A stretch of DNA of 64,000 bases, from positions 248,012 to 312,011 of the forward strand of contig JAJDCG010000001.1 of NCBI GenBank assembly GCA_029260965.1, in the 5' to 3' direction. Both the position numbers and the translations under genes were made by a program. The notes under the pieces are model-generated. The model was not told the DNA's origin. It worked only from the letters and a program-made list of their open reading frames with translations, and did not search any database. This DNA is from Candidatus Levyibacteriota bacterium. Lineage in GTDB: Bacteria; Patescibacteriota; Microgenomatia; Levybacterales; UBA12049. Below are positions 2,724-21,517 of the stretch, piece by piece. Position 1 is the first letter of the stretch; every line of letters begins with the position of its first letter.

Positions 2724-3212
2724 ATGATAAAAAAACAAAATGATAAACTAGAAAAGGAATTTACAGAAGTTGATGATTTAGGAGATGAGGACAATCAGGT
2801 GGAGATCCTTAAAAAAACAGTATCGGTATTTGAGGAAAAATACAAAAGAGCACTTGCTGACTATCAAAATTTACAAAAGAGAGTAGATATCGACAAAAAG
2901 AATTGGGTAAAAATAGCAAATCAGGAACTTTTGGCAAGGCTAATACCTGTACTTGATACATTAATGTTAGCAGGTCAGCATATTGATAATGAAGGATTAA
3001 AAGTAAGTATAGATCAATTTTTAGAGGTTTTAAAAGTAGAGGGAGTTGTAAAAATTGATGTAGATAAAAAAGAATTCAATCCGGAAATTATGGAGGCGAT
3101 AGCAGTTGGCGAGGGAGAGGAGAATAAGGTAATAGAAGAGATTAGACCAGGATACATGATTTATGATAAAGTGTTGAGGCCTTCTCAGGTAAAAGTGGGG
3201 AAACATTCATAA
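2724..3212 (+). CDS. grpE: Nucleotide exchange factor GrpE
   Basis: 162 aa with an N-terminal coiled coil and a C-terminal beta domain, positioned between hrcA and dnaK. Confidence 0.85.
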
Positions 3213-3216
3213 AAAT

Positions 3217-5133
3217 ATGGGAAAAATAATAGGAATTGATTTAGGAACAACAAATTCAGCAATGGCTGTAATGGAGGGTGGATCACCAAAAGTGATTCAT
3301 AGCGCTGAAGGGCGAAATACTATTCCATCAGTTGTTGATCCGATTGCGCATGTTGTAGGTGATGTTGCCAAGCGTCAGATGGCGATCAAACCTAAAAAAA
3401 CTGTGTTTTCAGTCAAGCGATTGGTTGGTCGTAAATTTAAAGATAAATCGGTTCAAGATGACATTAAATGGCTTCCATACACAGTCAAGAGCGGACGAGA
3501 TGACATGGCAGTTGTTGAGGTTGATGGTAAGACATTTACTCCTCAAGAACTCTCAGCTAAAATTCTTCAAAAGATTAAAGCAGATGCTGAGGCATATCTG
3601 GGTGAGAAAGTAACTCAGGCTGTGATCACAGTTCCTGCGTACTTTGATGATTCAGAGAGACAAGCTACCAAACAGGCAGGAGAAATTGCAGGACTTGAGG
3701 TTTTGCGTATTATTAACGAGCCAACAGCTGCTGCGCTTGCATATGGCTTGGATAAGAAAAATGCCCACACAATTGCTGTTTATGATTTAGGAGGTGGGAC
3801 ATTTGATATTTCTATTCTTGAACTTGGGGATGGAGTTTATCAGGTAAAATCAACCAATGGTGATACGCATCTCGGTGGAGATGATTTTGATCAGAAAATT
3901 ATTGATTATTTAGCTGATGAATTCAAGAAAGAAAATGATGTTGATCTAAGAAAAGATCCTCAGGCTCTGCAAAGACTTAAAGAATCAGCTGAGAAAGCAA
4001 AAATTGAACTATCAAGCTCTCAAGAGGCATCAATCAATCAGCCATTTATAACCCAGGGCAAAGATGGACCCCTTCACTTGACTTTAACCCTGAGTCGTTC
4101 CAAGCTTGAACAAATTGTAGATGAGTTGATTCAAAAGACTTTAAAGCCTGTTGAAAAGGCAATAAAAGATGCAGGAGTTAAGGTGACAGATGTTAACGAG
4201 ATAATAATGGTAGGTGGTATGACTCGCATGCCAAAAGTTGTTGAGGTAGTTGAAAAGTTTTTTGGTAAAGAAGTAAATAAGTCAGTAAATCCAGATGAGG
4301 TGGTAGCAATTGGTGCAGCTGTTCAAGCTGGAGTATTGGGTGGAGATGTAAAAGACGTATTGCTTCTGGACGTAACACCATTGACTTTGGGACTTGAAAC
4401 TCTGGGTAGTGTTTCAACGCCTCTAATTGATAGAAATACTACGATTCCTACCTCCAAATCACAAACCTTCTCAACTGCTGCTGATAATCAGACACAAGTA
4501 GAGATAAACGTGCTGCAAGGAGAGCGTCCGATGGCAGCGGACAATAAATCTTTGGGAAGATTTATTCTTGAGGGTATTCCACCAGCTCCTCGTGGTGTCC
4601 CGCAAGTAGAGGTGACTTTTGATATTGATGCGAGCGGAATTCTAAGTGTGAGTGCCAAAGATAAAGCAACAGGTAAAGAAAATAAGATCCAAATTACAGG
4701 AAGCACTGGTCTCTCAAAAGATGAAGTTGAGAAAATGACTAAAGAAGCAGAAGTACACGCTGCAGAAGATGAAGAGAAGAAGGGTAAGATTGAGGCACGA
4801 AATCACGCAGATTCTCTCATATTTACATCTGAGAAAGCTCTCAAGGATGCAGGCGATAAGGTTCCAGATGATGTAAAGACTGAAGTTGAAGAAAAAATAA
4901 AATCACTCAAAGACATTTTGGACAGTGGTAGCAAAGAAGATTTGGAGAGTAAAACAAATGAGCTTTCAGAATCGCTTCAGAAAATCGGTCAAGCGGCATA
5001 TGAACAGGGTCAAAAAGCACAAGAAGAGCCAGAAATAGAAAGTGAAGAAAAAGATGGTAAAGCAGAAGATATTAAAGATGAAACTTCTGAAAAAGATAAA
5101 GAAAAACCTGTTGAAGGAGAAGTGGTAGAGTAA
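3217..5133 (+). CDS. dnaK: Molecular chaperone DnaK (Hsp70)
   Basis: Starts [18 protein letters not shown] and carries DLGGGTFD and the other Hsp70 signatures over its full length. It has an acidic, E/K-rich C-terminal tail. Confidence 0.95.
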
Positions 5134-5260
5134 ATCCTAATTTCTAATTTCTAATATCTAAACAATTTCAAAATACAAATAATTAAAATTTAAAACGTTT
5201 TGATAAATGAATTTTTGATAATTTCGATTTGTTTAGGATTTAGATATTGGAGTTTAGGAT
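5134..5260. repeat. Imperfect terminal inverted repeats enclosing an AT-rich core in the dnaK-dnaJ spacer (MITE-like or regulatory palindrome)
   Basis: Left arm ATCCTAAtttCTAAtttCTAAtaTCTAAAC, right arm GTTTAGGAtTTAGAtaTtggagTTTAGGAT. The ends ATCCTAA/TTAGGAT are perfectly inverted and each arm has internal CTAA/TTAG direct repeats. Confidence 0.3.
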
Positions 5261-5272
5261 TTTTTATTTATT

Positions 5273-6139
5273 ATGGCGAGTGAAAAAGATTATTATCAAA
5301 TACTTGGAATTTCAAAAAACGCAACTGATGCAGAAATAAAAAGCGCGTATCGTAAGTTGGCCCTTGAATATCATCCTGACAAGAATAAATCAAAAGAGGC
5401 TGGTGAAAAATTCAAAGAAGTAACTAAAGCATATGAAGTGCTTTCAAATTCTTCTAAAAGGCAAAATTATGATCAATTTGGACATAGCGCTTTTGAGCAG
5501 GGAGGAATGGGTAGTGCAGGAGGCGGTGGAGGAGGTCAAGCAGGTGGTCAATACGGACCTTTTAGCTACCAATACTCAACCAGTGGTAATGCTGGAGGGT
5601 TTGATTTTGGAGGTGGAGTTGATCCTTTTGATATATTCGAGCAGTTTTTTGGTGGTGGATCACCGTTTGGCAATAGAACCAGAAGACCTGCGTATTCAAT
5701 TCGAATTAGTTTTGATGAGGCTGTAAAGGGAGTTGCTAAAGAAGTGAAAATTGATGGAAAGTCAAAAAAAATAAAAATACCAGCAGGTGTTGATAGTGGT
5801 TCTAGGATCAGATTTGACGAATATGATGTAGTTGTTGACGTTGCATCCAGTAGCAAATTCGCGCGCCAAGGTTATGATATCGTGACAGAGAAAGAGATAT
5901 CGTTTCCACAGGCAGCACTAGGGGATGAGTTGAAGATTGAAACAGTTGATGGTGAGGTAAAGATTCGTATACCCGCAGGTACTCAGCCCGAGACACTGAT
6001 AAGACTTGCAGGAAAAGGCGTTCCACATGTTAGAAGTGGTCAGCGCGGTAATCATTATGTAAAAATAAAAGTGACAGTTCCCGGCAGGTTAAGTCGTGAA
6101 CAAAAATCCCTCCTCGAAGAACTCAAAAAAACCTCATAG
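5273..6139 (+). CDS. dnaJ: J-domain co-chaperone, DnaJ/CbpA-like type II with no zinc-finger domain
   Basis: J domain [33 protein letters not shown], a G/F-rich linker and a C-terminal substrate-binding domain. The CxxCxGxG repeats are absent. Confidence 0.8.
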
Positions 6140-8319: not shown

Positions 8320-10821
8320 ATGAAAAAAATACTGTCCATTTTTTTGTTTTTTATTTTTACGATAGGAATATTTTTAACACCTGGATTGGTGCATGCTCAA
8401 AGCATACCGCCAGGTCTGCAGCTTGATACCATATCAAATCCAGGCGGTGAGGGTACTCGCTGGACACCTGATCCTGAAGTAACCTTTGTAGGACGTAATG
8501 CTGCGAGGTCTGGACTTCTTTTGGATTGGACACTCAGGAATTATAATTGGGTTTGTGTTTCAAAGGCCGATCCTAGCGCAAGGGTTTGTGACAATAGCAA
8601 TAACCCCTTGCGGACTTTTTGGACAAGGATTGTTTTTAATATCGTAACCCCACTTCTTTTCTTGGTAGTTATGGCAGCTGCCATAATTCTTATCGTTACT
8701 CGTGGGCGTTCTATTACTATAATGCGTTTTTTGCCAAGATTTATCATTATTGTTTTATTGGTGGCATTTTCGTTTTCTCTTGTAAGTTTTATTTATCAAT
8801 TTACAGATGCGATACAAGGCTTTTTCTTGGCGCCACCTGATGCAACTAGTACAAATCCAGGAGACCCTTGTCCTCCGAATTGTATTTCAAATGCAGATCT
8901 TCTTTTTGTGGGTTGGCCATATGAAGAATTTGTGGGGCTTCGAGCAATTGGCGATGACAAGTCAGAGGCTATATATACAACTCTTCTTCTGACTAAATTG
9001 ACAGCTTTTACGTATTATGTGATGTGGGGAATGCTTACACTTAGGAAGATAATACTATGGTTTTTTATAGTTGTATCACCTGTTTTTCCTCTTCTCCTTT
9101 TTTTCTATCCTGTACGCAACACAGCAAAAATTTGGATAGGTGAATTTTTTCGTTGGACATTATATGGACCTCTTTTTGCAATTTTTCTCAGCGGATTGGT
9201 TTTTATGTGGACTCAAAAGATACCTGTTGATATATCGACAGATATCGGAGTAAGGTCGCAAACTCCGACAACGACTAATTTGGCAGGTGAAACAGTACCA
9301 ATTATTTTCCCTACAGCTGTAAATATACTTCTGGGAGGCCCCCAGCAATTCGTGGAACCAGCTAATAATGTCAATAAAACTGAAACTTTTGCCCTTTATA
9401 TTGTCGCACTTCTTATGCTTTGGGGAGTTATTATTATGCCGTGGATACTTCTAAGAATTTTTCTTAGCGAAGCAGCAGGTGTTGGCAAGGTGGGGAGTGC
9501 TGCGGTCAATCAATTCGTGGGTAAGGTTAGGAATAAAATTGGACCATCACCAGGTAAGTCTCCTGATGGTGGGGGTAGGGCACTAAACCTGCCGTTTGCA
9601 AAGAAGTTTAGTCCACCGACTCCCCCAGCAGGTGGTGCTGGTCTGGCACGTGAAATACCACGTGATGTATCTGAGTCAAGAGCTGCAAAGAATGTATATA
9701 TGCCTTCTGCTCAGGTAAAAGCACAGGTATTGACTGCTGCAAACGTGAATCTGCCTACTTTGCGAGACATAGCAAAATATGATAGTTCGTTAATGAATCG
9801 TGACCAACAAGGGGAGATAACAAGGCTCCGTCAAAACTTGTCAAAGATTGCGAATCCTGCATCTAGCTCAACTTCAACAGAGCGTGAAAAGTATACACAA
9901 ATAAGAGAAAAGCTCACGCGGGAGAGTATGAGTGGAAATATACTGGCAACCTCTATTCTTAATGCAGCAAATAGCGCTACAAGGCATACAGCTCAGGTAA
10001 CTACTACACAGGTAAGAAGTATGCTTTCACAAGTTGCGAACCCTCAGTCAGCTACAACTCCAGTCATCAACAGGGAAAAACTGGAAAGCATGAATAGATC
10101 GCTCACGAAAGCAAAAGAAGAAGGCAATTCACTAGCTATTGCTGCGCTTTCAGTCACAGATAAGACGTCTGAGGCAGAGGTAGAGAAATTACAGGAGCGG
10201 ATCCGTACAGCTCGAGAAAAGCAGGATCCAATTGCATTGGAGCTTTCAGAATTAACAGATCAGAAGTCGTCGATTCCCGCAGTTAATCGTGTTCAGACGG
10301 TTAGTAGGGCAGATTATGAGGCAGTTAAAGATCTTTGGAAGGAGAACTATCACAATCAGGAGGTTCCTCAGCAGATGGGGTCACGTACAGAGTGGATTAA
10401 GAAAGATACAGAAAAAATAGAAAATATAATAAAGCTGCTTTCTTCGCAAAACGAAGAAGAAGTTACAAAAGGAGTTGGGGAAGTATCAGATATTCTTCCA
10501 TTCCTACTTGTTGGTGGATTTTCCCAGACAGAAATTGTTTCATACCTCAAAGCAAAAGAAGAGGCTGGACAAGAGATGGTTAAACAGCTCGAGAAGGAAG
10601 AAGAGGAGAAAGTTGTGGTAAAGGTAGGTAAAAAGACAGAGCAAAAAGAACAGGCTATGCACATGGAACAGACGATCCCTGATGAAGAAAATAAACCAGG
10701 TGGGACTAGTTCATCACCAGCTGAACCCGAGGATGCACTTGTGGGGGTAGAGAATCAGTCTCAAGAACAAAGGGATCAGGATAAACAATCTAACAATGAT
10801 GACAGTGCAGACAAAAAATAA
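8320..10821 (+). CDS. Large polytopic membrane protein (VirB6/TrbL-like?) with a pilin-like N-terminal module and a long coiled-coil/acidic C-terminal domain
   Basis: 833 aa. The signal peptide is followed by a Cys pair (VCVSKADPSARVC), then a hydrophobic helix plus TRGRS, resembling the pilin core. About five more TM helices follow, then roughly 430 aa of hydrophilic S/T/E/K-rich coiled-coil-like sequence. The gap to the upstream pilin gene is 5 nt. Confidence 0.4.
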   Translation: MKKILSIFLFFIFTIGIFLTPGLVHAQSIPPGLQLDTISNPGGEGTRWTPDPEVTFVGRNAARSGLLLDWTLRNYNWVCVSKADPSARVCDNSNNPLRTFWTRIVFNIVTPLLFLVVMAAAIILIVTRGRSITIMRFLPRFIIIVLLVAFSFSLVSFIYQFTDAIQGFFLAPPDATSTNPGDPCPPNCISNADLLFVGWPYEEFVGLRAIGDDKSEAIYTTLLLTKLTAFTYYVMWGMLTLRKIILWFFIVVSPVFPLLLFFYPVRNTAKIWIGEFFRWTLYGPLFAIFLSGLVFMWTQKIPVDISTDIGVRSQTPTTTNLAGETVPIIFPTAVNILLGGPQQFVEPANNVNKTETFALYIVALLMLWGVIIMPWILLRIFLSEAAGVGKVGSAAVNQFVGKVRNKIGPSPGKSPDGGGRALNLPFAKKFSPPTPPAGGAGLAREIPRDVSESRAAKNVYMPSAQVKAQVLTAANVNLPTLRDIAKYDSSLMNRDQQGEITRLRQNLSKIANPASSSTSTEREKYTQIREKLTRESMSGNILATSILNAANSATRHTAQVTTTQVRSMLSQVANPQSATTPVINREKLESMNRSLTKAKEEGNSLAIAALSVTDKTSEAEVEKLQERIRTAREKQDPIALELSELTDQKSSIPAVNRVQTVSRADYEAVKDLWKENYHNQEVPQQMGSRTEWIKKDTEKIENIIKLLSSQNEEEVTKGVGEVSDILPFLLVGGFSQTEIVSYLKAKEEAGQEMVKQLEKEEEEKVVVKVGKKTEQKEQAMHMEQTIPDEENKPGGTSSSPAEPEDALVGVENQSQEQRDQDKQSNNDDSADKK

Positions 10822-10867: not shown

Positions 10868-13800
10868 ATGTTTGGTACTCTTTTCAATCAAAAAAATGAT
10901 AATGAAGAAAAAAAACCTGTCCCATCCGGACAAGACGCCTCTGTTGCAACTGGGTCTACTCCCGTTCAGGATCAAACTACTCCTATTGGTCTAGCCAATA
11001 ATCAAGATCAGACATCTGCACAGTCGACAGAAAGTGTGGGAGTACCACAGTCGCAGGAAGGACAACAGCAAGCTCCATCAGGAACCCCAACCCAACCAGG
11101 CGCTGTGCAAAAGGACGATGATACAACTGGGGCGAATCCAGTTCAGAATCAGGGCATGTCTGCTCTTTCGCATCTTGATCCACGTGCAGCTCAGGTTTTG
11201 ACACATGCGCAAGAGGAAACCAAGCGTATCAAACAGCAGTTTATTGAGCCAGACCAGCTCCTTTTTGGACTTTTATATGATGATCAGATCTACAAGATTG
11301 CTGCCAAGTTCAAAGTAGATAGTGGAGTAATTTCAAAAGAAATCCAAGCTCGTGAGAAGATGGGAGCCTACCATGGCCAGCCAACCTTGAGTCAGATATC
11401 GCAACAAATTTTCGAACAAAGCTATAGAGATGCAAAAATGAGAGGTTCCAATTTTGTTTCGCCTGAGGACATACTTGTTACGCTTTGTGCGCCGACTACA
11501 GATACAGGAAAATATCTTGAATCTCGTGGATTTAAGAAAGAGGCTGTTGTAGACACTCTTTCAAAAGACACTAATCTCAACTACAGCAAGAAGACTGTAC
11601 TTGAAAAATACGGAACCGATCTTACTGAAGAGGCTCGCGCAGGCAGGTTGGATCCTATTGCTGGACGTGATCAGGAAATTGACCGTATGGTGCATATTCT
11701 TCTCAGACGCACCAAGAACAATCCGATTATTATCGGTGAGACCGGAGTTGGAAAGACAGCAATTGTTGAGGGGCTTGCGCAAGCAATAGCCAAGGGAGAT
11801 GTTCCACAAGAATTGAAAGATAAGAGAGTGTTTCAGTTGGATGTTGCATCTTTAGTTGCGGGAGCATCACATAGAGGAGAGTTTGAGGAGAGGCTCAGAA
11901 GTGTCATCAATGAAGTTTTGTCATCAAACAATCAGATAGTTCTTTTTGTTGATGAGGTCCATTCATTGCTGGGAACAGGAGAGGGTGAGGGAGTAAGTGC
12001 TGCCAATATTATAAAACCACATCTTGCCCGTGGTCATTTTCAGATGATTGGTGCAACCACAACCATTGAATACCGAAAAAACTTTGAGAAAGATAAGGCT
12101 TTTGAAAGGCGTTTTCAGCCTGTGACAGCAGAAGAGCCATCAGAGGAAAATGCATTTCTCATGCTTAAAGTTCTCAGACCAAAGTACGAGAAATTCCACA
12201 AAGTAACCATACCTGATGAAACGCTCAAGGAATGTGTCAAGCTTTCCAAAAAATACATTGGCGAGCGATATCTTCCTGATAAAGCAGTTGATTTACTTGA
12301 CGAGGGCGCATCAGATGTGAAGCTGATGGCGGATGAGGGAAGACGTAAAGATACAACCCTGAGAAAAGAAGACGTAGAAAAAGTTGTAAGTAACTGGACA
12401 GGAATTCCAATAACAAAGCTGACAGAGGATGAATCTGAGAAACTTCTTAAACTTGAAGATAGAATTCATCATCGCTTGATTGATCAGATGGAGGCAGTGG
12501 TTGCTGTTTCTGAAGCTGTAAGACGCGGAAGGATAGGTCTGGCATCTGCTAATCGGCCGATTGCATCATTTGTCTTTCTCGGTCCAACAGGTGTTGGTAA
12601 AACAGAGCTTGCAAAGACTTTGGCTGAGCTTCTTTTTGGACGTGATGATGCTATGGCAAGACTGGACATGTCTGAATACATGGAGAAACATGAGGTTGCT
12701 AAATTAATTGGTGCGCCTCCTGGTTATGTTGGTTATGAAGAGGGTGGTCAGTTAACAGAGGCGGTTCGGAAAAAACCATATTCAATAGTTCTTCTTGATG
12801 AGATTGAGAAGGCACATCCAGATGTGTTTAATATTCTTCTTCAGCTCCTGGAGGATGGGAGGCTTACTGATAATAAAGGTAACACAATATCATTCAAAAA
12901 CACCATTGTTATTTGTACGTCAAATATCGGAAGTTCCATGATTCAGCAAGAACTTTCAAAAACAGATAAAAACGTGAAACATACACCAGAACAAAATGCT
13001 GAATCGTTTAAGCATCTTCAGGGATTAGTAAAGGAGGAGCTTATTAAATTCTTCAGGCCAGAGCTTCTTAACCGATTTGATGATGTTGTTATTTTTAAGC
13101 CCCTTTTGCAGGAACATATGGCAGGTATAGCAAGGCTTGGGATTAAAAAAACCGCTGGTCTTCTCAAGGAGCAGGGTTTCGTTCTTCAGTGTACAGAAAA
13201 AGCTATAGCACAGCTTGCTAAAGATGGTTATGATCCTGTCTATGGTGCGCGTCCATTGAGAAGACTTATCCAGACAGCAGTTGAAAATCCTGTGGCTATT
13301 GCTATTATTTCCAAGAAATTTGCGGTAGGAGACACAATAGTTGTTGATTATGATTCAGGTAAAAATGAGTTTGTATTTAAAAAGGGTGCATCAGCGAGTG
13401 AGAATATAAATCCGAAAAAAATTCTTCTTGAAATTGTCAACCCAGGTGATATTAAAGACAAAGCGAAGAAGGATCAATTTACCAAACTTCATGACGATTT
13501 GGTCGTAAAGAGTAAGGGAGGAGATAGTCTCGCAAGTTCTATTATGTCTATAACTCCTGATACGTCTGATGAAACAATTAAAGAGATTCTTGATAATTTG
13601 GAAAAAGCAAAACAAGGTGGAGACATGCTCTTTACTGATGTGTTGACAGCAGTTAATGCTGAAATGGCTGAGGAGGCAGAGGAGGCGCATGAGGCAGAAC
13701 CTGTGACTAAATTTAAAAAACTTCTTCAGCAGGTCATAAACCCTCTTTATTTGTCCGCACCAGGAAACAAAGAGAGGTTTAGTGCTCTTTATGACAAGTT

Positions 13801-14578
13801 ATCTGTTGCCAATCAGGAGGGCAATAAGTTGGCAGGTTCAATACTGGCGATAACTGACATTACTTCAGATGAAGACATAGCTGTTATCAAAAAGCAACTT
13901 GAGGAGGCAAAAGCACAAAATGATCCTTTTGCAACAGAAGTTCTTGCAGTTCTTGAAGCAGGCACAAAAACGGATGAGGTTGCTAAGTTGCGTGAGACTG
14001 TAGGATTTATCGTGAACCCGATTACTGCTGAAAGCTCAGCAAAGAAAACACAGTATGATGAGATTAGGGTAAAGCTAGCGGCGCTTTCTGAGAAAGGAAA
14101 TGCTGTGGCATCTGCTGTTATGGGAGTAAGTGATGCAACTACCGATGATCAGTTGATTCTTATTAAGACTCAGATTGAAAACGGTAGAAATAGTAATGAC
14201 GAGGCAGCTCTCCTTCTTTCAAATGTCTTGTCTATGTCACCAGCGGTTCAGGATGCGCAGGTGCAGATGGCCAAACAGAATACAGGTGCACAGCCGAAGG
14301 ATCCTAATCAGGCATATCCATTTGGTCCAGGGCAGCAATCTCCGCAGCCGATTCAGCCTTCTGTTGCTGGAGCTGCTCAGACTATGCCTGAGGGGGGTGC
14401 TTCTGCGCGGGTTCAGACTGATGGACAATCAGTAGGTGGTCCTACATTTCAGTCGCCTGTTCAGGATGGTGGAGCAGTTGCACAAGGGGCAGGCATGGCA
14501 GCTCTAAATGAGCAGTTAGAGAGGGATAATCAGATTATAAATAATCAACTTGAATCCGAAGGCGAAAGTATCGCGTAG
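10868..14578 (+). CDS. clpC: ClpC-like Hsp100 AAA+ ATPase with a Q/T-rich N-terminal region and a roughly 400-aa C-terminal extension
   Basis: Clp_N repeat (LFGLLYDD). D1 carries Walker [16 protein letters not shown] and Walker B LFVDEVH. A short ClpC-type linker follows. D2 carries [17 protein letters not shown] and [28 protein letters not shown], with the sensor-2 GARPLRR. Beyond the usual ClpC end there are three tandem repeats of about 90 aa and a G/Q/P-rich tail. A GAGGT RBS lies 10 nt upstream. Confidence 0.85.
13415..14255 (+). repeat. Three tandem repeats of about 270 bp (about 90 aa) coding within the ClpC-like C-terminal extension
   Basis: The repeat units [10 protein letters not shown]...[43 protein letters not shown]...[33 protein letters not shown] and [10 protein letters not shown]...[32 protein letters not shown] share the pattern [IV]NP...G..LA.S[IV]..[IV][ST]D.TSD[ED].I. 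Confidence 0.7.
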
Positions 14579-14863
14579 TGAATGACAAAGGCAAAGGAAT
14601 TCTTCAGTTACAAATAAAATTCAAAATTTAAAATCAACATTTTTACTAATCCACTTAGATCTGATTATGGCTCTATTTCAGAGATGGAAGAAGCAAGACT
14701 TGCTAGAATTAATCTAGAATTTGCAATAATATATTTTTTAAATCTGAATCAGTATTTACAGGTTTTGGATCTCTAGGATTAAATTCGATCGTAGAATGCA
14801 TCAATGAATAAAAGCTTCTGTTTGTAATTTGTCTACCCACAACTTATACTAAAAGTACTGTCT

Positions 14864-15193
14864 ATGGGAAGTTATGCATTTTTACCGTTGGTTTTTTTGA
14901 GGTTTTGGTTTTTTGAGGCGCCATTGGGTTTGATAAAATATTTTTTATCTTTGAACACAGCTTTTTTTGAGCTTTTCTCATTGCCTCTTTTGATAAGAAC
15001 CTATTTCCAGCCACTTAAAAATGAGTATAGGAAGGGGCTGGTTGGTTTTTCCCGCAGTATGGGTATTGCGGTCAAGACTGTTCTTATTTTTGTCGATTTG
15101 TTAATTTTTATTCCACTTTTGATTTTTGAGACTGTGGTAATAGTTTTGTTTTTTCTATTTCCGATAATTACAGTGGCGCTGTTGTTTTATTGA
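14864..15193 (+). CDS. Small hydrophobic membrane protein
   Basis: 109 aa with three to four TM segments. Its stop codon overlaps the start region of the downstream Clp paralog. Confidence 0.35.
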   Translation: MGSYAFLPLVFLRFWFFEAPLGLIKYFLSLNTAFFELFSLPLLIRTYFQPLKNEYRKGLVGFSRSMGIAVKTVLIFVDLLIFIPLLIFETVVIVLFFLFPIITVALLFY

Positions 15194-15201
15194 CAGAGAC
15201 T

Positions 15202-17610
15202 ATGAAGGAGTACGCAAAAATTCACTATTTTTATACGAGAGCTATCACGAGAACTATACGTCTTTTTGTGTTTTCGATCCTAGCACTCTTTGTCTATCAG
15301 GGGGTTGAGAGTGCAGGTATTTCTAAAATTGTTGTTTTTCTTTTTAATGTTTTTGTGATGAATGAGGTATTTTTTCGCTACAAAATAGGACGCATAATGC
15401 CAGAAATGAAGCTTGAAAATAATAATGGAAAAGACATTTATAAATCGTTCACTCTACAGGCAATGTCACCATTTGTTACGGAAGGAAATCTGGAGGGGGT
15501 AATAAGCAAAATATTAGAGAAGCCAAAGATTAAAAAAATTATGCAGAAGATCAATCTGACTGAAGAGGAGTTGGTGTTTCCTGAAATTGATAAACAAACC
15601 CTCGCAAAAAGCGCTTATGATGCTGCAGTTACATTTGGGGCTAAGTATGTGACCACAGTTGATGTTTTTGCAGCCTATTTCTTCCTCATAGAAAGAGACA
15701 ATAAGTTACTTTTTGCGAAACAGCTAAAGCTGGATGATCTTATTAATATATTGCATTTTATAAGAGTGAAATATCCCGATGAAGAAGATCCAAAAAAAAG
15801 AAGAATTAGTATGTCTGGGTCTGGAATGGGAGAGGCTCTGGTTACAGGATGGACACCCGAGACCAAAAATTATACAAATAATTTTACCTCAACAGCACTC
15901 AAAGAAAGACCTAGCCTCAAAGGGCGGGAGGGGGAATTCAGAGGAATGCTTGAGGGTCTAATCAAATTTGATTCAAACAACGTTCTTTTGGTGGGTGATA
16001 TAGGATCAGGTAAAGAGAACTTAGTTAGAGCACTTGCATATTATAGTTTTGAGGGTAGTATCGGAAAATATTTGAATCATAAAAAAGTTCTGTACTTGAT
16101 GGTTGGGGCACTCACCGCTGGTGCTGTTAATAGATCTGATCTTGAAACAAGGCTACAGAGCATTATTGCAGAGGTGACTCATGCCCAAAATGTAATTCTC
16201 TACATTCCAGAATTCCAAAACATACTAGGTGGCACATCATACGGCATAGATCTGTCGGGAGCACTTCTTCCATATCTTAAATCAGGCGCGCTTCCTATTG
16301 TTGCGAGCATGACAACTGGTCAATACAAGTCTTATATGGAAAAAAATCCCCTGAGAGAAGCCTTTACAATCATTCATCTTAATGAGCCTGATGCTGATAT
16401 GGCAATTCAGATGGTGTTATCAGACGCAGAAAAAATTGAGAGGAAATACGGTGTAATACTCAGTTATCTCAGTATTGCAAGCGCAGTTGAGCTCTCGAGT
16501 CGTTTTCTTCAGGACCAGGTGCTTCCGGGTAGCGCCATATCACTTCTGTCTTCAGTTGCCAATAAAGTCTCCAGTTCAAAAGATGCTCCCAAATACGGTA
16601 AAACAAAAAAGAAAATAGTTCTTGAGGAACATGTTGTAGCAGCAGTAGAAAACGAGGCTAATGTTTCGATCGTTCTCCCGACAGGCGATGAAATAGAGCT
16701 TCTTTTACACTTGGAAGAAAAGCTTCACGAGCGCGTAATTGGCCAAGATGCAGCGGTAGAGGCAATATCAGAGGCTATGCGGCGTGTTCGGTCAGGTATA
16801 AAAACTAGTGAAAAACCTGTATCCTTTCTTTTTCTTGGTCCAACAGGTGTGGGTAAGACAGAAACAGCCAAAGCGTTGTCAGACTTTTATTTTGGTGGTG
16901 TGAAGAACATGACCAGGCTTGATATGAGCGAGTATGCAGATGAGGCAGGAGTGCGTCGTCTTCTTGGAGCGCCCCCTGGCGCTGGTACGGAGCGTGGAGA
17001 ACTTACAGACAAAATTCATGACCATCCATCAAGCCTAATTCTTTTGGATGAATTTGAGAAAGCAAATTCAGAGATTCATAATCTATTCTTGCAGGTTTTG
17101 GATGATGGCAGACTAACAGACAATAAAGGGCAGACAGTCAGTTTCCGAAACGCTATTATTATCGCGACGTCCAATGCTGGATCTGAATTTATACGTGAGC
17201 AGGTAGAGAAAGGGTTGGGTCTGGATAAGCTTTTTCAGCAAAAGCTTCTTGATCAGCTTCAAACAACTGGTATTTTTAGACCAGAGCTGTTGAATCGGTT
17301 TGATGACGTAGTTACATTTAAGCCACTTGATGATAAGCAGGTTGAGGATGTGGTTCGGTTAATACTTGCAAACTTAAGCCACAATATGGCTGATCAGGAC
17401 ATAGTGGTAAGTTTTGATGATGCGGTGGTAGAGAAAATTTCCAAGGAAGGTTACGACAAGGAGTTTGGTGCTCGCCCCCTCAAACGTTTTATTCAGGATA
17501 ACATAGAGGATATGATTGCTCAAAAACGTTTAACTAGAGAAATTGATAGAGGAAAAAAAGTCAGTTTCTCAGTTGATGGGACTGGAGCTATGAGTTTGGT
17601 TATTTCTTAA
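15202..17610 (+). CDS. Membrane-anchored Clp/Hsp100 paralog with a degenerate D1 ATPase module and an intact D2
   Basis: Two N-terminal TM helices (LFVFSILALFVYQGV and ISKIVVFLFNVFVMNEVFF) and a Clp_N-like repeat. At the D1 Walker A position the sequence is GDIGSGKENL, which lacks the Thr/Ser. At the D1 Walker B position it is ILYIPEFQNI in place of hhhhDE. D2 is canonical: [50 protein letters not shown]. The track ORF starts at a TTG at 15190; the ATG at 15202 is preferred. Confidence 0.75.
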   Translation: MKEYAKIHYFYTRAITRTIRLFVFSILALFVYQGVESAGISKIVVFLFNVFVMNEVFFRYKIGRIMPEMKLENNNGKDIYKSFTLQAMSPFVTEGNLEGVISKILEKPKIKKIMQKINLTEEELVFPEIDKQTLAKSAYDAAVTFGAKYVTTVDVFAAYFFLIERDNKLLFAKQLKLDDLINILHFIRVKYPDEEDPKKRRISMSGSGMGEALVTGWTPETKNYTNNFTSTALKERPSLKGREGEFRGMLEGLIKFDSNNVLLVGDIGSGKENLVRALAYYSFEGSIGKYLNHKKVLYLMVGALTAGAVNRSDLETRLQSIIAEVTHAQNVILYIPEFQNILGGTSYGIDLSGALLPYLKSGALPIVASMTTGQYKSYMEKNPLREAFTIIHLNEPDADMAIQMVLSDAEKIERKYGVILSYLSIASAVELSSRFLQDQVLPGSAISLLSSVANKVSSSKDAPKYGKTKKKIVLEEHVVAAVENEANVSIVLPTGDEIELLLHLEEKLHERVIGQDAAVEAISEAMRRVRSGIKTSEKPVSFLFLGPTGVGKTETAKALSDFYFGGVKNMTRLDMSEYADEAGVRRLLGAPPGAGTERGELTDKIHDHPSSLILLDEFEKANSEIHNLFLQVLDDGRLTDNKGQTVSFRNAIIIATSNAGSEFIREQVEKGLGLDKLFQQKLLDQLQTTGIFRPELLNRFDDVVTFKPLDDKQVEDVVRLILANLSHNMADQDIVVSFDDAVVEKISKEGYDKEFGARPLKRFIQDNIEDMIAQKRLTREIDRGKKVSFSVDGTGAMSLVIS

Positions 17611-20437: not shown

Positions 20438-21517
20438 ATGGATAACCAAATAGGACAAAAGTTGAAGGATTTAATCGCTTCAGGCACAAGTTTTGGTGTC
20501 GCAGTTGGCTCAGACCCTACTCTTGATGAGATGGGGGCAGCACTTTCTCTGTATCTGATGCTTAAAAACGCAGGTAAAGAAGTGTCTATAGCATCGCCCA
20601 CAGACCCCATTGTTGAAGTTTCATCTTTAGTCGGAGTCGATAAAGTAAAAAAAACCCTTGGTGGTGGATCAGGTGGCGATCTTACGGTCTCGTTTCCATA
20701 CACTGAGGGAGAAATCGAAAAGGTTTCATATACTCAGGAAGAGGGTTTTCTCAATATTATAGTTAAAGCAGGAGAGGGTGGTCTTTCGTTTGGTGAAAAA
20801 GATGTGAAATTCACAAGGGGTGGTGGGGCGCTTGATGCAGTGTTTGTTATCGGCACGCCGTATCTTGCTGAGGTTGACAGTCTGTTTGATACAGAAAATC
20901 CTGATATAAAGATTATAAATATTGACAATAAGCAGGAAAACGAAGGTTATGGAGATGTGGTGCTTGTTGCAAGTAGACTCTCATCTGTAAGTGAGGGAGT
21001 AGCTGATTTGGCGCTCGTTTTGGGTCTTAATATTGATGCTGATTCAGCACAAAATTTACTTAATGGTATAACATATGCTACTGGGAATTTCCAGAATAAA
21101 AATACATCTCCGCTTGCTTTTGAGATGGTATCGCTTTTGATGAAGAAAGGTGCTGTTCGCGAGGTTCCCGAAAGTGCGACAAAAGGTATAAGTATGATGG
21201 GACAAAGAGATGACAGAAAGTTCCAAAACAGGAATCAACCACAGAACCGTAACCAGTCATCGCAGAGACAGGATGGTCAGAGGAAATCTGACATTAGGCA
21301 AAGTCGTGGTGGATTTGAGCAAAAACTTCAGGAAAGAGTAAGGCAGGAGAGAGATCGTGAAGCAAGACAAGGGCAGCAGGGCAATAATCCGCCTGGGAAT
21401 AAACCCCAGCCACAAACACAGCCTCGCGTAAGTAACCAACAGGATGCTGATGTCATTGGAGAAGCGCCAATAGATTGGCTCGCACCCAAGGTCTACAAAG
21501 GCTCAAGCGACGTATAG
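20438..21517 (+). CDS. DHH-family (NrnA-like) phosphoesterase homolog, probably catalytically degenerate, with a Q/R-rich tail
   Basis: Lies between infB and rpsO, where rbfA/nrnA-type genes usually sit. The N-terminal fold resembles DHH, but the DHH metal motif is replaced (VAVGSDPTLDEMGAALSL). The C-terminal roughly 110 aa are a Q/R/N-rich low-complexity tail. Confidence 0.4.
   Translation: MDNQIGQKLKDLIASGTSFGVAVGSDPTLDEMGAALSLYLMLKNAGKEVSIASPTDPIVEVSSLVGVDKVKKTLGGGSGGDLTVSFPYTEGEIEKVSYTQEEGFLNIIVKAGEGGLSFGEKDVKFTRGGGALDAVFVIGTPYLAEVDSLFDTENPDIKIINIDNKQENEGYGDVVLVASRLSSVSEGVADLALVLGLNIDADSAQNLLNGITYATGNFQNKNTSPLAFEMVSLLMKKGAVREVPESATKGISMMGQRDDRKFQNRNQPQNRNQSSQRQDGQRKSDIRQSRGGFEQKLQERVRQERDREARQGQQGNNPPGNKPQPQTQPRVSNQQDADVIGEAPIDWLAPKVYKGSSDV

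Follow-up and report, generated by a model that had tools for sequence, protein, structure and literature searches.

A membrane-held Hsp100 paralog with a degenerate D1 module and its candidate small membrane partner in Levybacteria

Hsp100/Clp proteins are textbook soluble threading motors. Among other AAA+ (ATPases associated with various cellular activities) proteins, FtsH and Msp1/Bcs1 are single-ring members of the classical AAA clade with an N-terminal transmembrane (TM) anchor, and FtsH and Msp1 have aromatic pore loops. Pex1/Pex6 and NSF, also of the classical AAA clade, have aromatic pore loops in their active ring, thread substrates and are not integral membrane proteins; one ring (D1 in Pex1/Pex6, D2 in NSF) is silent but conserved for assembly or scaffolding, the other ring being the motor. 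Torsins, which in eukaryotes occupy the endoplasmic reticulum and also the nuclear envelope, have a Clp-D2-related AAA+ fold without aromatic pore-loop residues, are membrane-associated and have the transmembrane cofactors LAP1 and LULL1; each is a single AAA+ module with no arginine finger of its own, which the cofactor supplies. Here we describe a pair of adjacent genes, encoding an 802-residue Hsp100/Clp paralog and a 109-residue membrane protein, in a 64,000-nucleotide stretch of a Candidatus Levyibacteriota genome (contig JAJDCG010000001.1; hereafter the window). The pair is best explained, with a probability of roughly 0.55, as a membrane AAA+ machine that D2 would drive without threading and that would include the small protein as a subunit. 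No description of a membrane-embedded Hsp100 or of the small partner was found in the literature on Clp proteins in the candidate phyla radiation (CPR), Patescibacteria or Levybacteria, on membrane-anchored Hsp100 proteins, or on pseudo-ATPases.

The Hsp100 paralog, its membrane hairpin and its two AAA+ modules

The features of the paralog, from its start codon onward, are as follows.

15202-17610, + strand: Hsp100/Clp paralog gene, ATG start, 802 residues (802-residue homologues and family consensus start)
15190-17610, + strand: the same gene from an alternative TTG start at 15190, 806 residues
15202-15387, + strand: basic amphipathic helix and TM hairpin (TM1, residues 14-35; TM2, residues 40-62), from the AlphaFold2 (AF2) model and the charge pattern
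15364-15384, + strand: motif E(V/I)FF(H/R)(Y/F)K at the cytoplasmic end of TM2, found clade-wide by conservation
15403-15801, + strand: all-helical N domain, divergent and Clp_N-like, residues ~68-200 (AF2, profile alignments)
15922-16596, + strand: degenerate D1 AAA+ module (alignments, purifying selection)
15994-16020, + strand: D1 Walker A, GDIGSGKEN
16117-16146, + strand: D1 pore loop, AGAVNRSDLE
16195-16218, + strand: D1 Walker B, ILYIPEFQ
16303-16317, + strand: D1 sensor-1, ASMTT
16348-16368, + strand: former D1 arginine-finger site, PLREAFT
16699-17607, + strand: intact D2 AAA+ module and D2-small domain (Pfam, alignments)
16837-16863, + strand: D2 Walker A
16966-17007, + strand: D2 pore loop, GAPPGAGTERGELT, without aromatics and 2 residues shorter
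17035-17064, + strand: D2 Walker B, LILLDEFEKA
17164-17181, + strand: D2 sensor-1, TSN
17287-17304, + strand: D2 arginine finger, LLNRFD
17467-17487, + strand: D2 sensor-2, GARPLKR

The ATG at 15202 is the likely start because nearly all homologues are 802 residues long, as is a 100% identical database protein (P0001), and because the consensus of the 117-member family begins there. Tandem D1 (AAA plus AAA_lid_9) and D2 (AAA_2 plus ClpB_D2-small) modules, collinear with those of ClpA, ClpB and ClpC, place the protein among the class I Hsp100s. Pfam returned AAA_2 (4e-47), ClpB_D2-small (1e-21) and AAA_lid_9 (1e-7) for the 802-residue protein, with neither a confident D1 AAA match nor a Peptidase_M41 match; in the alignment to ClpB, D1 covered residues 171-414 with 103 bits and D2 scored 270 bits. 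The NCBIfam equivalogs for ClpB (TIGR03346; 454 bits, cut-off 1232), ClpA (TIGR02639; 419 bits, cut-off 993) and ClpV all matched at about one third of the cut-off score. The protein is 37% identical to, and collinear with, a neighbouring 1236-residue paralog without an M-domain insertion; the D1-D2 junction matches that of the paralog without a break, and no long coiled coil appears in the AF2 model between residues 400 and 500, so that an M domain is absent. Judged from its sequence, the protein belongs by fold to the Hsp100/Clp superfamily and lacks the defining features of ClpA, ClpB and ClpC.

In the AF2 model of the 802-residue protein (predicted local distance difference test, pLDDT, 84.7), N-terminal helices span residues 2-12, 14-36 and 42-62, the TM helices at pLDDT ~90, and an all-helical domain follows them at residues 79-190. 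The TM helices are backed by hydropathy, by a positive-inside charge pattern and by the model; basic residues mark the N-terminus and the segment after TM2, whereas the 5 residues that connect the two helices carry no charge, as would be expected of an in-out-in hairpin that leaves the AAA+ rings on the cytoplasmic side. Together these data show a class-I Hsp100/Clp protein with two AAA+ modules, whose N-terminal TM hairpin holds it in the membrane and whose rings are cytoplasmic; a first-pass annotation had likewise described a second, membrane-anchored Hsp100 paralog with two N-terminal TM helices. Two conserved polar or charged residues, N49 (near-invariant) and E55 (invariant), lie in or at the ends of TM2. 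The Clp_N-like domain of the same annotation found weak support: hhalign against canonical N domains gave E=4.5e-4 over 33 columns, covering the second Clp_N repeat only, and the alignment to ClpA begins at residue 129 (ClpA/TIGR02639 alignments begin within residues 113-129), but Pfam gave no Clp_N (PF02861) match in the 802-residue protein. Distant clade members have weak or precomputed Clp_N matches.

To register the motifs, the protein was aligned by HMMER with ClpB of T. thermophilus and ClpC of B. subtilis. GDIGSGKE of the D1 Walker A aligned on GEPGVGKT (threonine to glutamate) and ILYIPEF of the Walker B on ILFIDEL (aspartate to proline), the D1 arginine fingers were lost (ERRFQ to REAFT), and the D1 pore loop read VNR instead of KYR. 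The GK[ST], hhhhDE and arginine fingers of a competent D1 are thus replaced by GKE, YIPE and REAFT, substitutions that are fixed in the family. D2 presented a different picture; its Walker A and B, sensor-1, arginine finger and sensor-2 are intact and essentially invariant in the family, and its pore loop, GAPPGAGTERGE, contains no aromatic residue and is 2 residues shorter than the canonical GYVG-type loop, so that the 802-residue protein has neither the KYR aromatic of D1 nor the GYVG aromatic of D2. The first-pass annotation had read the D1 Walker A as GDIGSGKENL without threonine or serine after the lysine, the D1 Walker B as YIPEF rather than hhhhDE, and the D2 Walker motifs and arginine finger as intact; alignment to ClpB and ClpC bore out all three readings, the last family-wide, and the D1 motifs had neither been mis-registered nor arisen by chance. 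The analysis further found features beyond that account, namely the loss of the D1 arginine fingers and of both pore-loop tyrosines, and the lack of an M domain and of a conserved ClpP-docking loop. A GLGL at D2 residues 671-674 was considered as a ClpP-docking [LIV]G[FL] motif and rejected, the family consensus being GTKI and the deep branches varying; the loop reads EKGLGLD here and EKGTKID in the family consensus.

The degenerate D1 was then compared across the family. More than 270 homologues of the paralog have a constant length, with the open reading frame (ORF) intact; the Walker A glutamate is present in 116 of 117 homologues and the Walker B proline in 115 of 117. Among 30 orthologues the large subdomain had a mean pairwise identity of 0.56 in D1 and of 0.73 in D2. 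In the closest orthologue pairs the nonsynonymous substitution rate (dN) of D1 was 0.06-0.12 and dN/dS 0.02-0.06, the synonymous rate (dS) being saturated even there, such that these ratios are upper-bound-style estimates. D1 is therefore under strong purifying selection despite its degenerate motifs. In deep-branching members (43-51% identity) the Walker B aspartate is always replaced, by proline in all deep-branching Levybacteria loci, the second Walker B acidic residue drifts (E/D/N/S/Y), and the Walker A varies between GKT, GKS, GKA, GRRE and GKEN. As the D1 motifs vary while the fold is kept, D1 hydrolysis appears dispensable.

The small protein and a large Patescibacteria clade

The features of the small gene, whose stop codon lies 8 nucleotides upstream of the ATG at 15202, are as follows.

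14864-15193, + strand: small ORF, putative 109-residue polytopic membrane partner protein (ORF list)
Residues 11-20: motif FLRFWFFEAP in the N-terminal helix
14999-15052, + strand: invariant loop T46-S63, TYFQPLKNEYRKGLVGFS
Residues 60-108: long hydrophobic C-terminal helix containing the invariant E89

The small gene lies directly upstream of the ATPase gene in 35/35 related loci with upstream DNA, and a homologous small gene occupies the same position in 6/6 distant members that are not fused (L046, L047, L050, L051, L052, L053); with a profile built without fused sequences, three of these six score 2e-30, 6e-15 and 4e-8. About 13 cluster representatives carry the small protein as an N-terminal fusion to the ATPase. 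A profile of unfused sequences only matched residues ~1-105 of P0356 (6e-9), P0290 (1e-6), P0357 (2e-6) and others, the best reversed decoy sequence scoring 0.06; fused and unfused sequences share the pattern F..WW...P...F.P...D...GR..S...R when aligned, and both fused members whose context was examined lack a separate small gene. The fusion is the strongest argument that small protein and ATPase would work as one machine, and adjacency and fusion together support the small ORF as a true partner, presumably tied to the ATPase in function. The co-arrangement with a small membrane protein, noted at first pass, is thus a general property of the related loci.

All 110 homologues of the small protein, each of about 109 residues, are annotated as hypothetical. 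The AF2 model has a pLDDT of 91.6, and the invariant loop, with the pattern T..F.PLKNEYRKGLVGFS, lies between the FWF..AP helix and the hydrophobic helix. Neither the small protein nor the fused N-termini matched a Pfam (E up to 1) or NCBIfam family, only sub-threshold holin/DUF noise being returned, and the small protein had no structural match to any known channel. The invariant LVGF of its loop was considered as a ClpP-docking motif acting in trans and was rejected, because the wider family reads (V/I)GR.

To place the pair, a profile of the N-terminal half of the ATPase was searched against 1.84 billion cluster representatives, giving 109 full-length proteins among the best 150. At least one TM segment before D1 was predicted in 90 of the 109; the other 19 are canonical Clp proteins. 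D2 Walker A and B are kept in 90/90 TM-bearing representatives, whereas a canonical pore loop is found in 0/90 for D1 and 0/90 for D2, the RR fingers are kept in 2/90 and both D1 Walker motifs in 15/90. Degeneracy of the D1 Walker motifs varies across the clade and is most extreme here (GKE, hhhhP[DE]); in deep branches the D2 pore loop is shortened further or scrambled. The Levybacteria protein shares a TM segment before the N domain, a small FxxWW...FxP...G[RF] protein upstream or fused, an intact D2 and pore loops without aromatics, and belongs with other membrane-embedded Hsp100 derivatives in a large clade of Patescibacteria (CPR), in which an M domain and a conserved ClpP-docking loop are missing throughout. 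Source names of members are Levyibacteriota, Woykebacteria, Doudnabacteria and 'Patescibacteria group', the nearest relatives being Candidatus Levyibacteriota metagenome-assembled genomes; a third, word-indexed search with a distant-member profile returned mostly canonical Clp proteins and added two taxon names. Loci of Nitrospirae, Bacteroidales and Alphaproteobacteria from a genome scan were rejected as pattern false positives, being ordinary ClpB with canonical motifs. The neighbourhoods of clade members are housekeeping in kind: nusA-infB, ribosomal protein operons, secE-nusG and tig-clpP.

Several further observations were made on clade members. Six proteins (P0298, P0312, P0319, P0329, P0343, P0373) form a zinc-ribbon subgroup, in which an N-terminal stretch of ~45 residues carries two CxxCxGxG motifs; these precede the TM segments and resemble the cysteine-rich finger of DnaJ, and Pfam gave weak generic zinc-finger matches. 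In the distant locus L047, ~2.4 kb (3141-5599) between the leucyl aminopeptidase and small-protein genes has no long ORF or called gene and may encode a non-coding RNA, with tig and clpP immediately upstream. Twelve loci (L004, L007-L009, L013, L016, L018, L020, L021, L030, L036, L038) have Levybacteria-type synteny and 50-65% identical proteins under other taxon labels ('uncultured Gammaproteobacteria', Lysobacterales, Acidiferrales, Methylomirabilota, Sulfotelmatobacter), and are probably mis-binned contigs or bear placeholder names.

Proposed mechanism, alternative explanations and the ClpC-like neighbour

We reasoned that the Hsp100-type ring, as family membership suggests, would assemble on the cytoplasmic face of the membrane, with D1 as a non-hydrolysing ring of a structural or assembly type and D2 as the only motor. 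Nucleotide might nonetheless be bound by D1, given that the Levybacteria lineage has retained GxxGxGK and sensor-1. The lack of pore-loop tyrosines, of an M domain and of a ClpP loop argues against threading, whether for disaggregation or for protease feeding, and the protein is probably neither a ClpB-like disaggregase nor a polypeptide-threading protease partner of the ClpC/ClpA kind. Cycles of ATP hydrolysis in D2 would instead probably be passed to, or act on, a membrane complex of its own TM hairpin and the small partner, the effect being the remodelling or gating of that assembly or of bound clients, with a logic resembling, by analogy, that of torsin and its membrane cofactors or, in a looser sense, that of any membrane AAA+ acting on or through a TM assembly of its own. 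The housekeeping neighbourhoods point to a core role in CPR cells, either in the envelope or in proteostasis. The chance of the pair being a functionally distinct machine is substantial; we put forward only tentatively the wider proposal of a CPR-wide, previously unrecognised membrane AAA+ class, a D2-driven non-threading remodeller or conduit with a core housekeeping role and no characterised Clp/Hsp100 counterpart.

Several points weigh against a D2-driven, non-threading machine of this kind. Canonical D1 Walker A and B occur together in the 15 of 90 TM-bearing representatives given above, so D1 inactivity is no clade-wide rule. A 'dead' D1 is a prediction from motifs; in the Levybacteria lineage D1 keeps GxxGxGK and the sensor-1 threonine, and the Walker A glutamate might partly replace the lost Walker B aspartate in Mg2+ coordination. 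Loss of the pore-loop tyrosines is no proof against threading, as other residues could grip a substrate. The TM helices are predicted from hydropathy and AF2, the oligomeric state is assumed from family membership, the link between the small protein and the ATPase is a genomic one (adjacency, fusion), and the hydrophobic stretch of the small protein, 46 residues long, leaves its predicted topology ambiguous.

The alternative that survives best, although we consider it unlikely, is a classical unfoldase or disaggregase for membrane-protein quality control, which would thread by means of non-aromatic loops, deliver to a protease (FtsH, Lon or ClpP) or to refolding, and use the small protein as an adaptor or delivery subunit. 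The Hsp100 fold, an N domain of a kind that binds substrates or adaptors in relatives, and the fully intact D2 motor are all as expected of such an enzyme; three deep-branching loci have a DnaJ gene a short way upstream, tig-clpP lies nearby in one distant genome, and the paired CxxCxGxG ribbon of some members is reminiscent of the substrate-binding finger of DnaJ, although Pfam did not confirm it as one. The absence of the pore-loop aromatic from D1 and D2 in all 90 TM-bearing representatives speaks against threading, as does a D2 loop that is 2 residues shorter here and that deep branches have shortened further or scrambled; a conserved [LIV]G[FL] loop for ClpP is missing, and so is an M domain for coupling to DnaK or MecA. 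The specialised membrane Hsp100 suggested at first pass is therefore retained as regards its degenerate but conserved D1 and active-type D2, but threading quality control is doubtful for a protein with no pore tyrosines, M domain or ClpP loop.

It is improbable, in our estimation, that the pair forms an AAA+-driven membrane conduit, in which six ATPase and six small subunits would build, from their TM helices, a channel aligned with a wide, aromatic-free pore and, much as Bcs1 or a secretion ATPase does, would carry folded or unusual cargo (protein, lipid-linked or other) into the membrane or to its other side. A conduit would be in keeping with a polytopic membrane domain as obligate partner or fused part, with the conserved N49 and E55 in TM2 of the ATPase and E89 of the small protein, all within or at the ends of TM segments, and with the loss of gripping loops from a motor that is kept. 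The argument is purely architectural, however, secretion-system genes are not among the neighbours, and the small protein resembles no known channel structure.

Another explanation involves the genes upstream of the pair.

8320-10821, + strand: gene for an 833-residue membrane protein (ORF list)
10868-14578, + strand: clpC-like gene, soluble 1236-residue Hsp100 paralog; context, not a demonstrated part of the module
14579-14863, + strand: 285-bp spacer that separates the small ORF from the clpC-like gene

Both ATPase sites of the 1236-residue Hsp100 are intact; the protein lacks an M domain and is lengthened by long extensions at the two termini. As a ClpC it is atypical, with no [LIV]G[FL] ClpP loop and a D1 pore loop reading SHR (histidine for tyrosine); its extensions, ~100 residues N-terminal and ~400 residues C-terminal, are of low complexity or repeated sequence. 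The 37% identity and the common lack of an M domain are consistent with an old duplication having given rise to the two paralogs. An ~85-residue repeat, NP...KxxY..I..KL....GN.LA.SIL...D.TSDE.I..IK.QLE.AK...DP.A.EVL, is common to the cytoplasmic tail of the 833-residue membrane protein (9700-10818) and the C-terminal extension of the ClpC-like ATPase (13388-14575), which has ~3 copies (BLASTP E=4e-15). Most Levybacteria loci keep these two genes together, and the common repeat may hint at a second membrane-recruitment arrangement, for the soluble paralog.

The clpC gene lies upstream of the pair in 24 Levybacteria loci and is absent within ~7 kb upstream in 5 loci; in many loci inserts of 0.1-3 kb, encoding a secreted 600-760-residue protein, DnaJ or a transposase, separate it from the pair, and no second Clp gene was found near any of the six distant clade members examined. 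Linkage to clpC is thus not universal, and the conserved unit is the pair rather than the triad. The triad of clpC, small ORF and paralog, which the first-pass annotation wished to see surveyed in related genomes, proved to be lineage-specific; of the shared operon that it proposed, the adjoining genes stand here, but a 285-bp spacer intervenes and relatives have variable inserts. In eight deep-branching Levybacteria loci (L019, L024, L026, L027, L029, L031, L033, L034) a 470-760-residue protein with an N-terminal membrane anchor or signal sequence is encoded directly upstream of the small gene, at ~2 kb, and in the deep-branching L025, L028 and L034 a DnaJ gene lies 1-2 kb upstream.

These data bear on whether the TM-bearing Hsp100 might be a membrane anchor or regulator of the 1236-residue ClpC-like ATPase, through mixed hexamers or docking, to which we attach little likelihood. 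The two genes are neighbours in those 24 loci, the proteins share 37% identity and an M-domain-less layout, and the repeat common to the ClpC-like and 833-residue proteins hints at membrane recruitment. The variable inserts, the 5 loci with no clpC within ~7 kb and the distant members with no second Clp gene nearby count against an anchor, and the invariant catalytic residues of D2 argue for an autonomous motor. The channel or translocase reading and the mixed-hexamer reading are alike arguments from architecture. Finally, a decaying duplicate of clpC, a pseudogene in the making unique to this contig, as the loss of canonical D1 motifs beside an intact paralog might suggest and as the first-pass annotation had named as an alternative, is refuted by the intact ORF and more than 270 constant-length homologues, by replacement residues that are themselves fixed in the family, by a D1 dN/dS below 0.06 and by a clade spanning several CPR lineages.

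The remaining features of the locus complete the context of the pair. Downstream of the paralog the gene order is nusA, infB, a 359-residue ORF, rpsO and pnp; GC content is ~0.40, and no ClpP signature was found within the 64-kb window. A weak sigma-70-like match at 14822-14850, inside the 285-bp spacer, is only suggestive, since matches in promoter and terminator scans were no commoner than in shuffled sequence. The 359-residue ORF (20438-21517), kept in all related loci between infB and rpsO, occupies the usual rbfA/truB position; it has no Pfam family on record, and its C-terminus is Gln/Arg-rich and of low complexity.

Comparison with known systems

The paralog has the same collinear layout (N domain-D1-D2-D2-small) as ClpA, ClpC and ClpB, and its D2 is 40-50% identical to theirs with all catalytic motifs. 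What is added is a TM hairpin and an apparently obligate small membrane partner; what is lost is the Walker A threonine, the Walker B aspartate and the arginine fingers of D1, together with both pore-loop tyrosines. An M domain is absent here as it is from ClpA, but there is no conserved IGL loop and the score falls below the ClpA equivalog cut-off; the long coiled-coil M domain that ClpB has in its D1 small subdomain is missing, as are the short M domain and conserved ClpP-docking loop of ClpC. Current 'ClpC/ClpA/ClpB' labels imply ClpP-coupled degradation or DnaK-coupled disaggregation, and the sequence features argue against both; the small partner is labelled only 'hypothetical'.

FtsH and Msp1/Bcs1 resemble the paralog in having an N-terminal TM anchor that positions the AAA+ ring against the membrane, on the side of the cytoplasm or matrix. 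FtsH likewise pairs with small membrane partners but carries an M41 protease domain, whereas the protein described here has two Clp-type AAA modules and no Peptidase_M41 match. With Pex1/Pex6 and NSF it would share, by analogy, one silent conserved ring and a second ring as motor. The likeness to torsins, offered as an analogy without implying homology, lies in the lack of pore aromatics, the membrane association and what looks like an obligate membrane partner. Unlike torsins, the paralog has a second, degenerate ring, and its D2 keeps its own arginine finger (LLNRFD), so that catalysis supplied by a cofactor is not implied; the partner, too, is predicted to be a small all-helical membrane protein rather than the AAA-like fold of the torsin cofactor. 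A membrane-integral, tyrosine-less clade driven by D2 only, with a dedicated small subunit, would widen the known uses of the Hsp100 fold, and its housekeeping context and spread over several Patescibacteria lineages suggest that it may be part of the core biology of the cell in these ultrasmall bacteria, most of which are uncultured.

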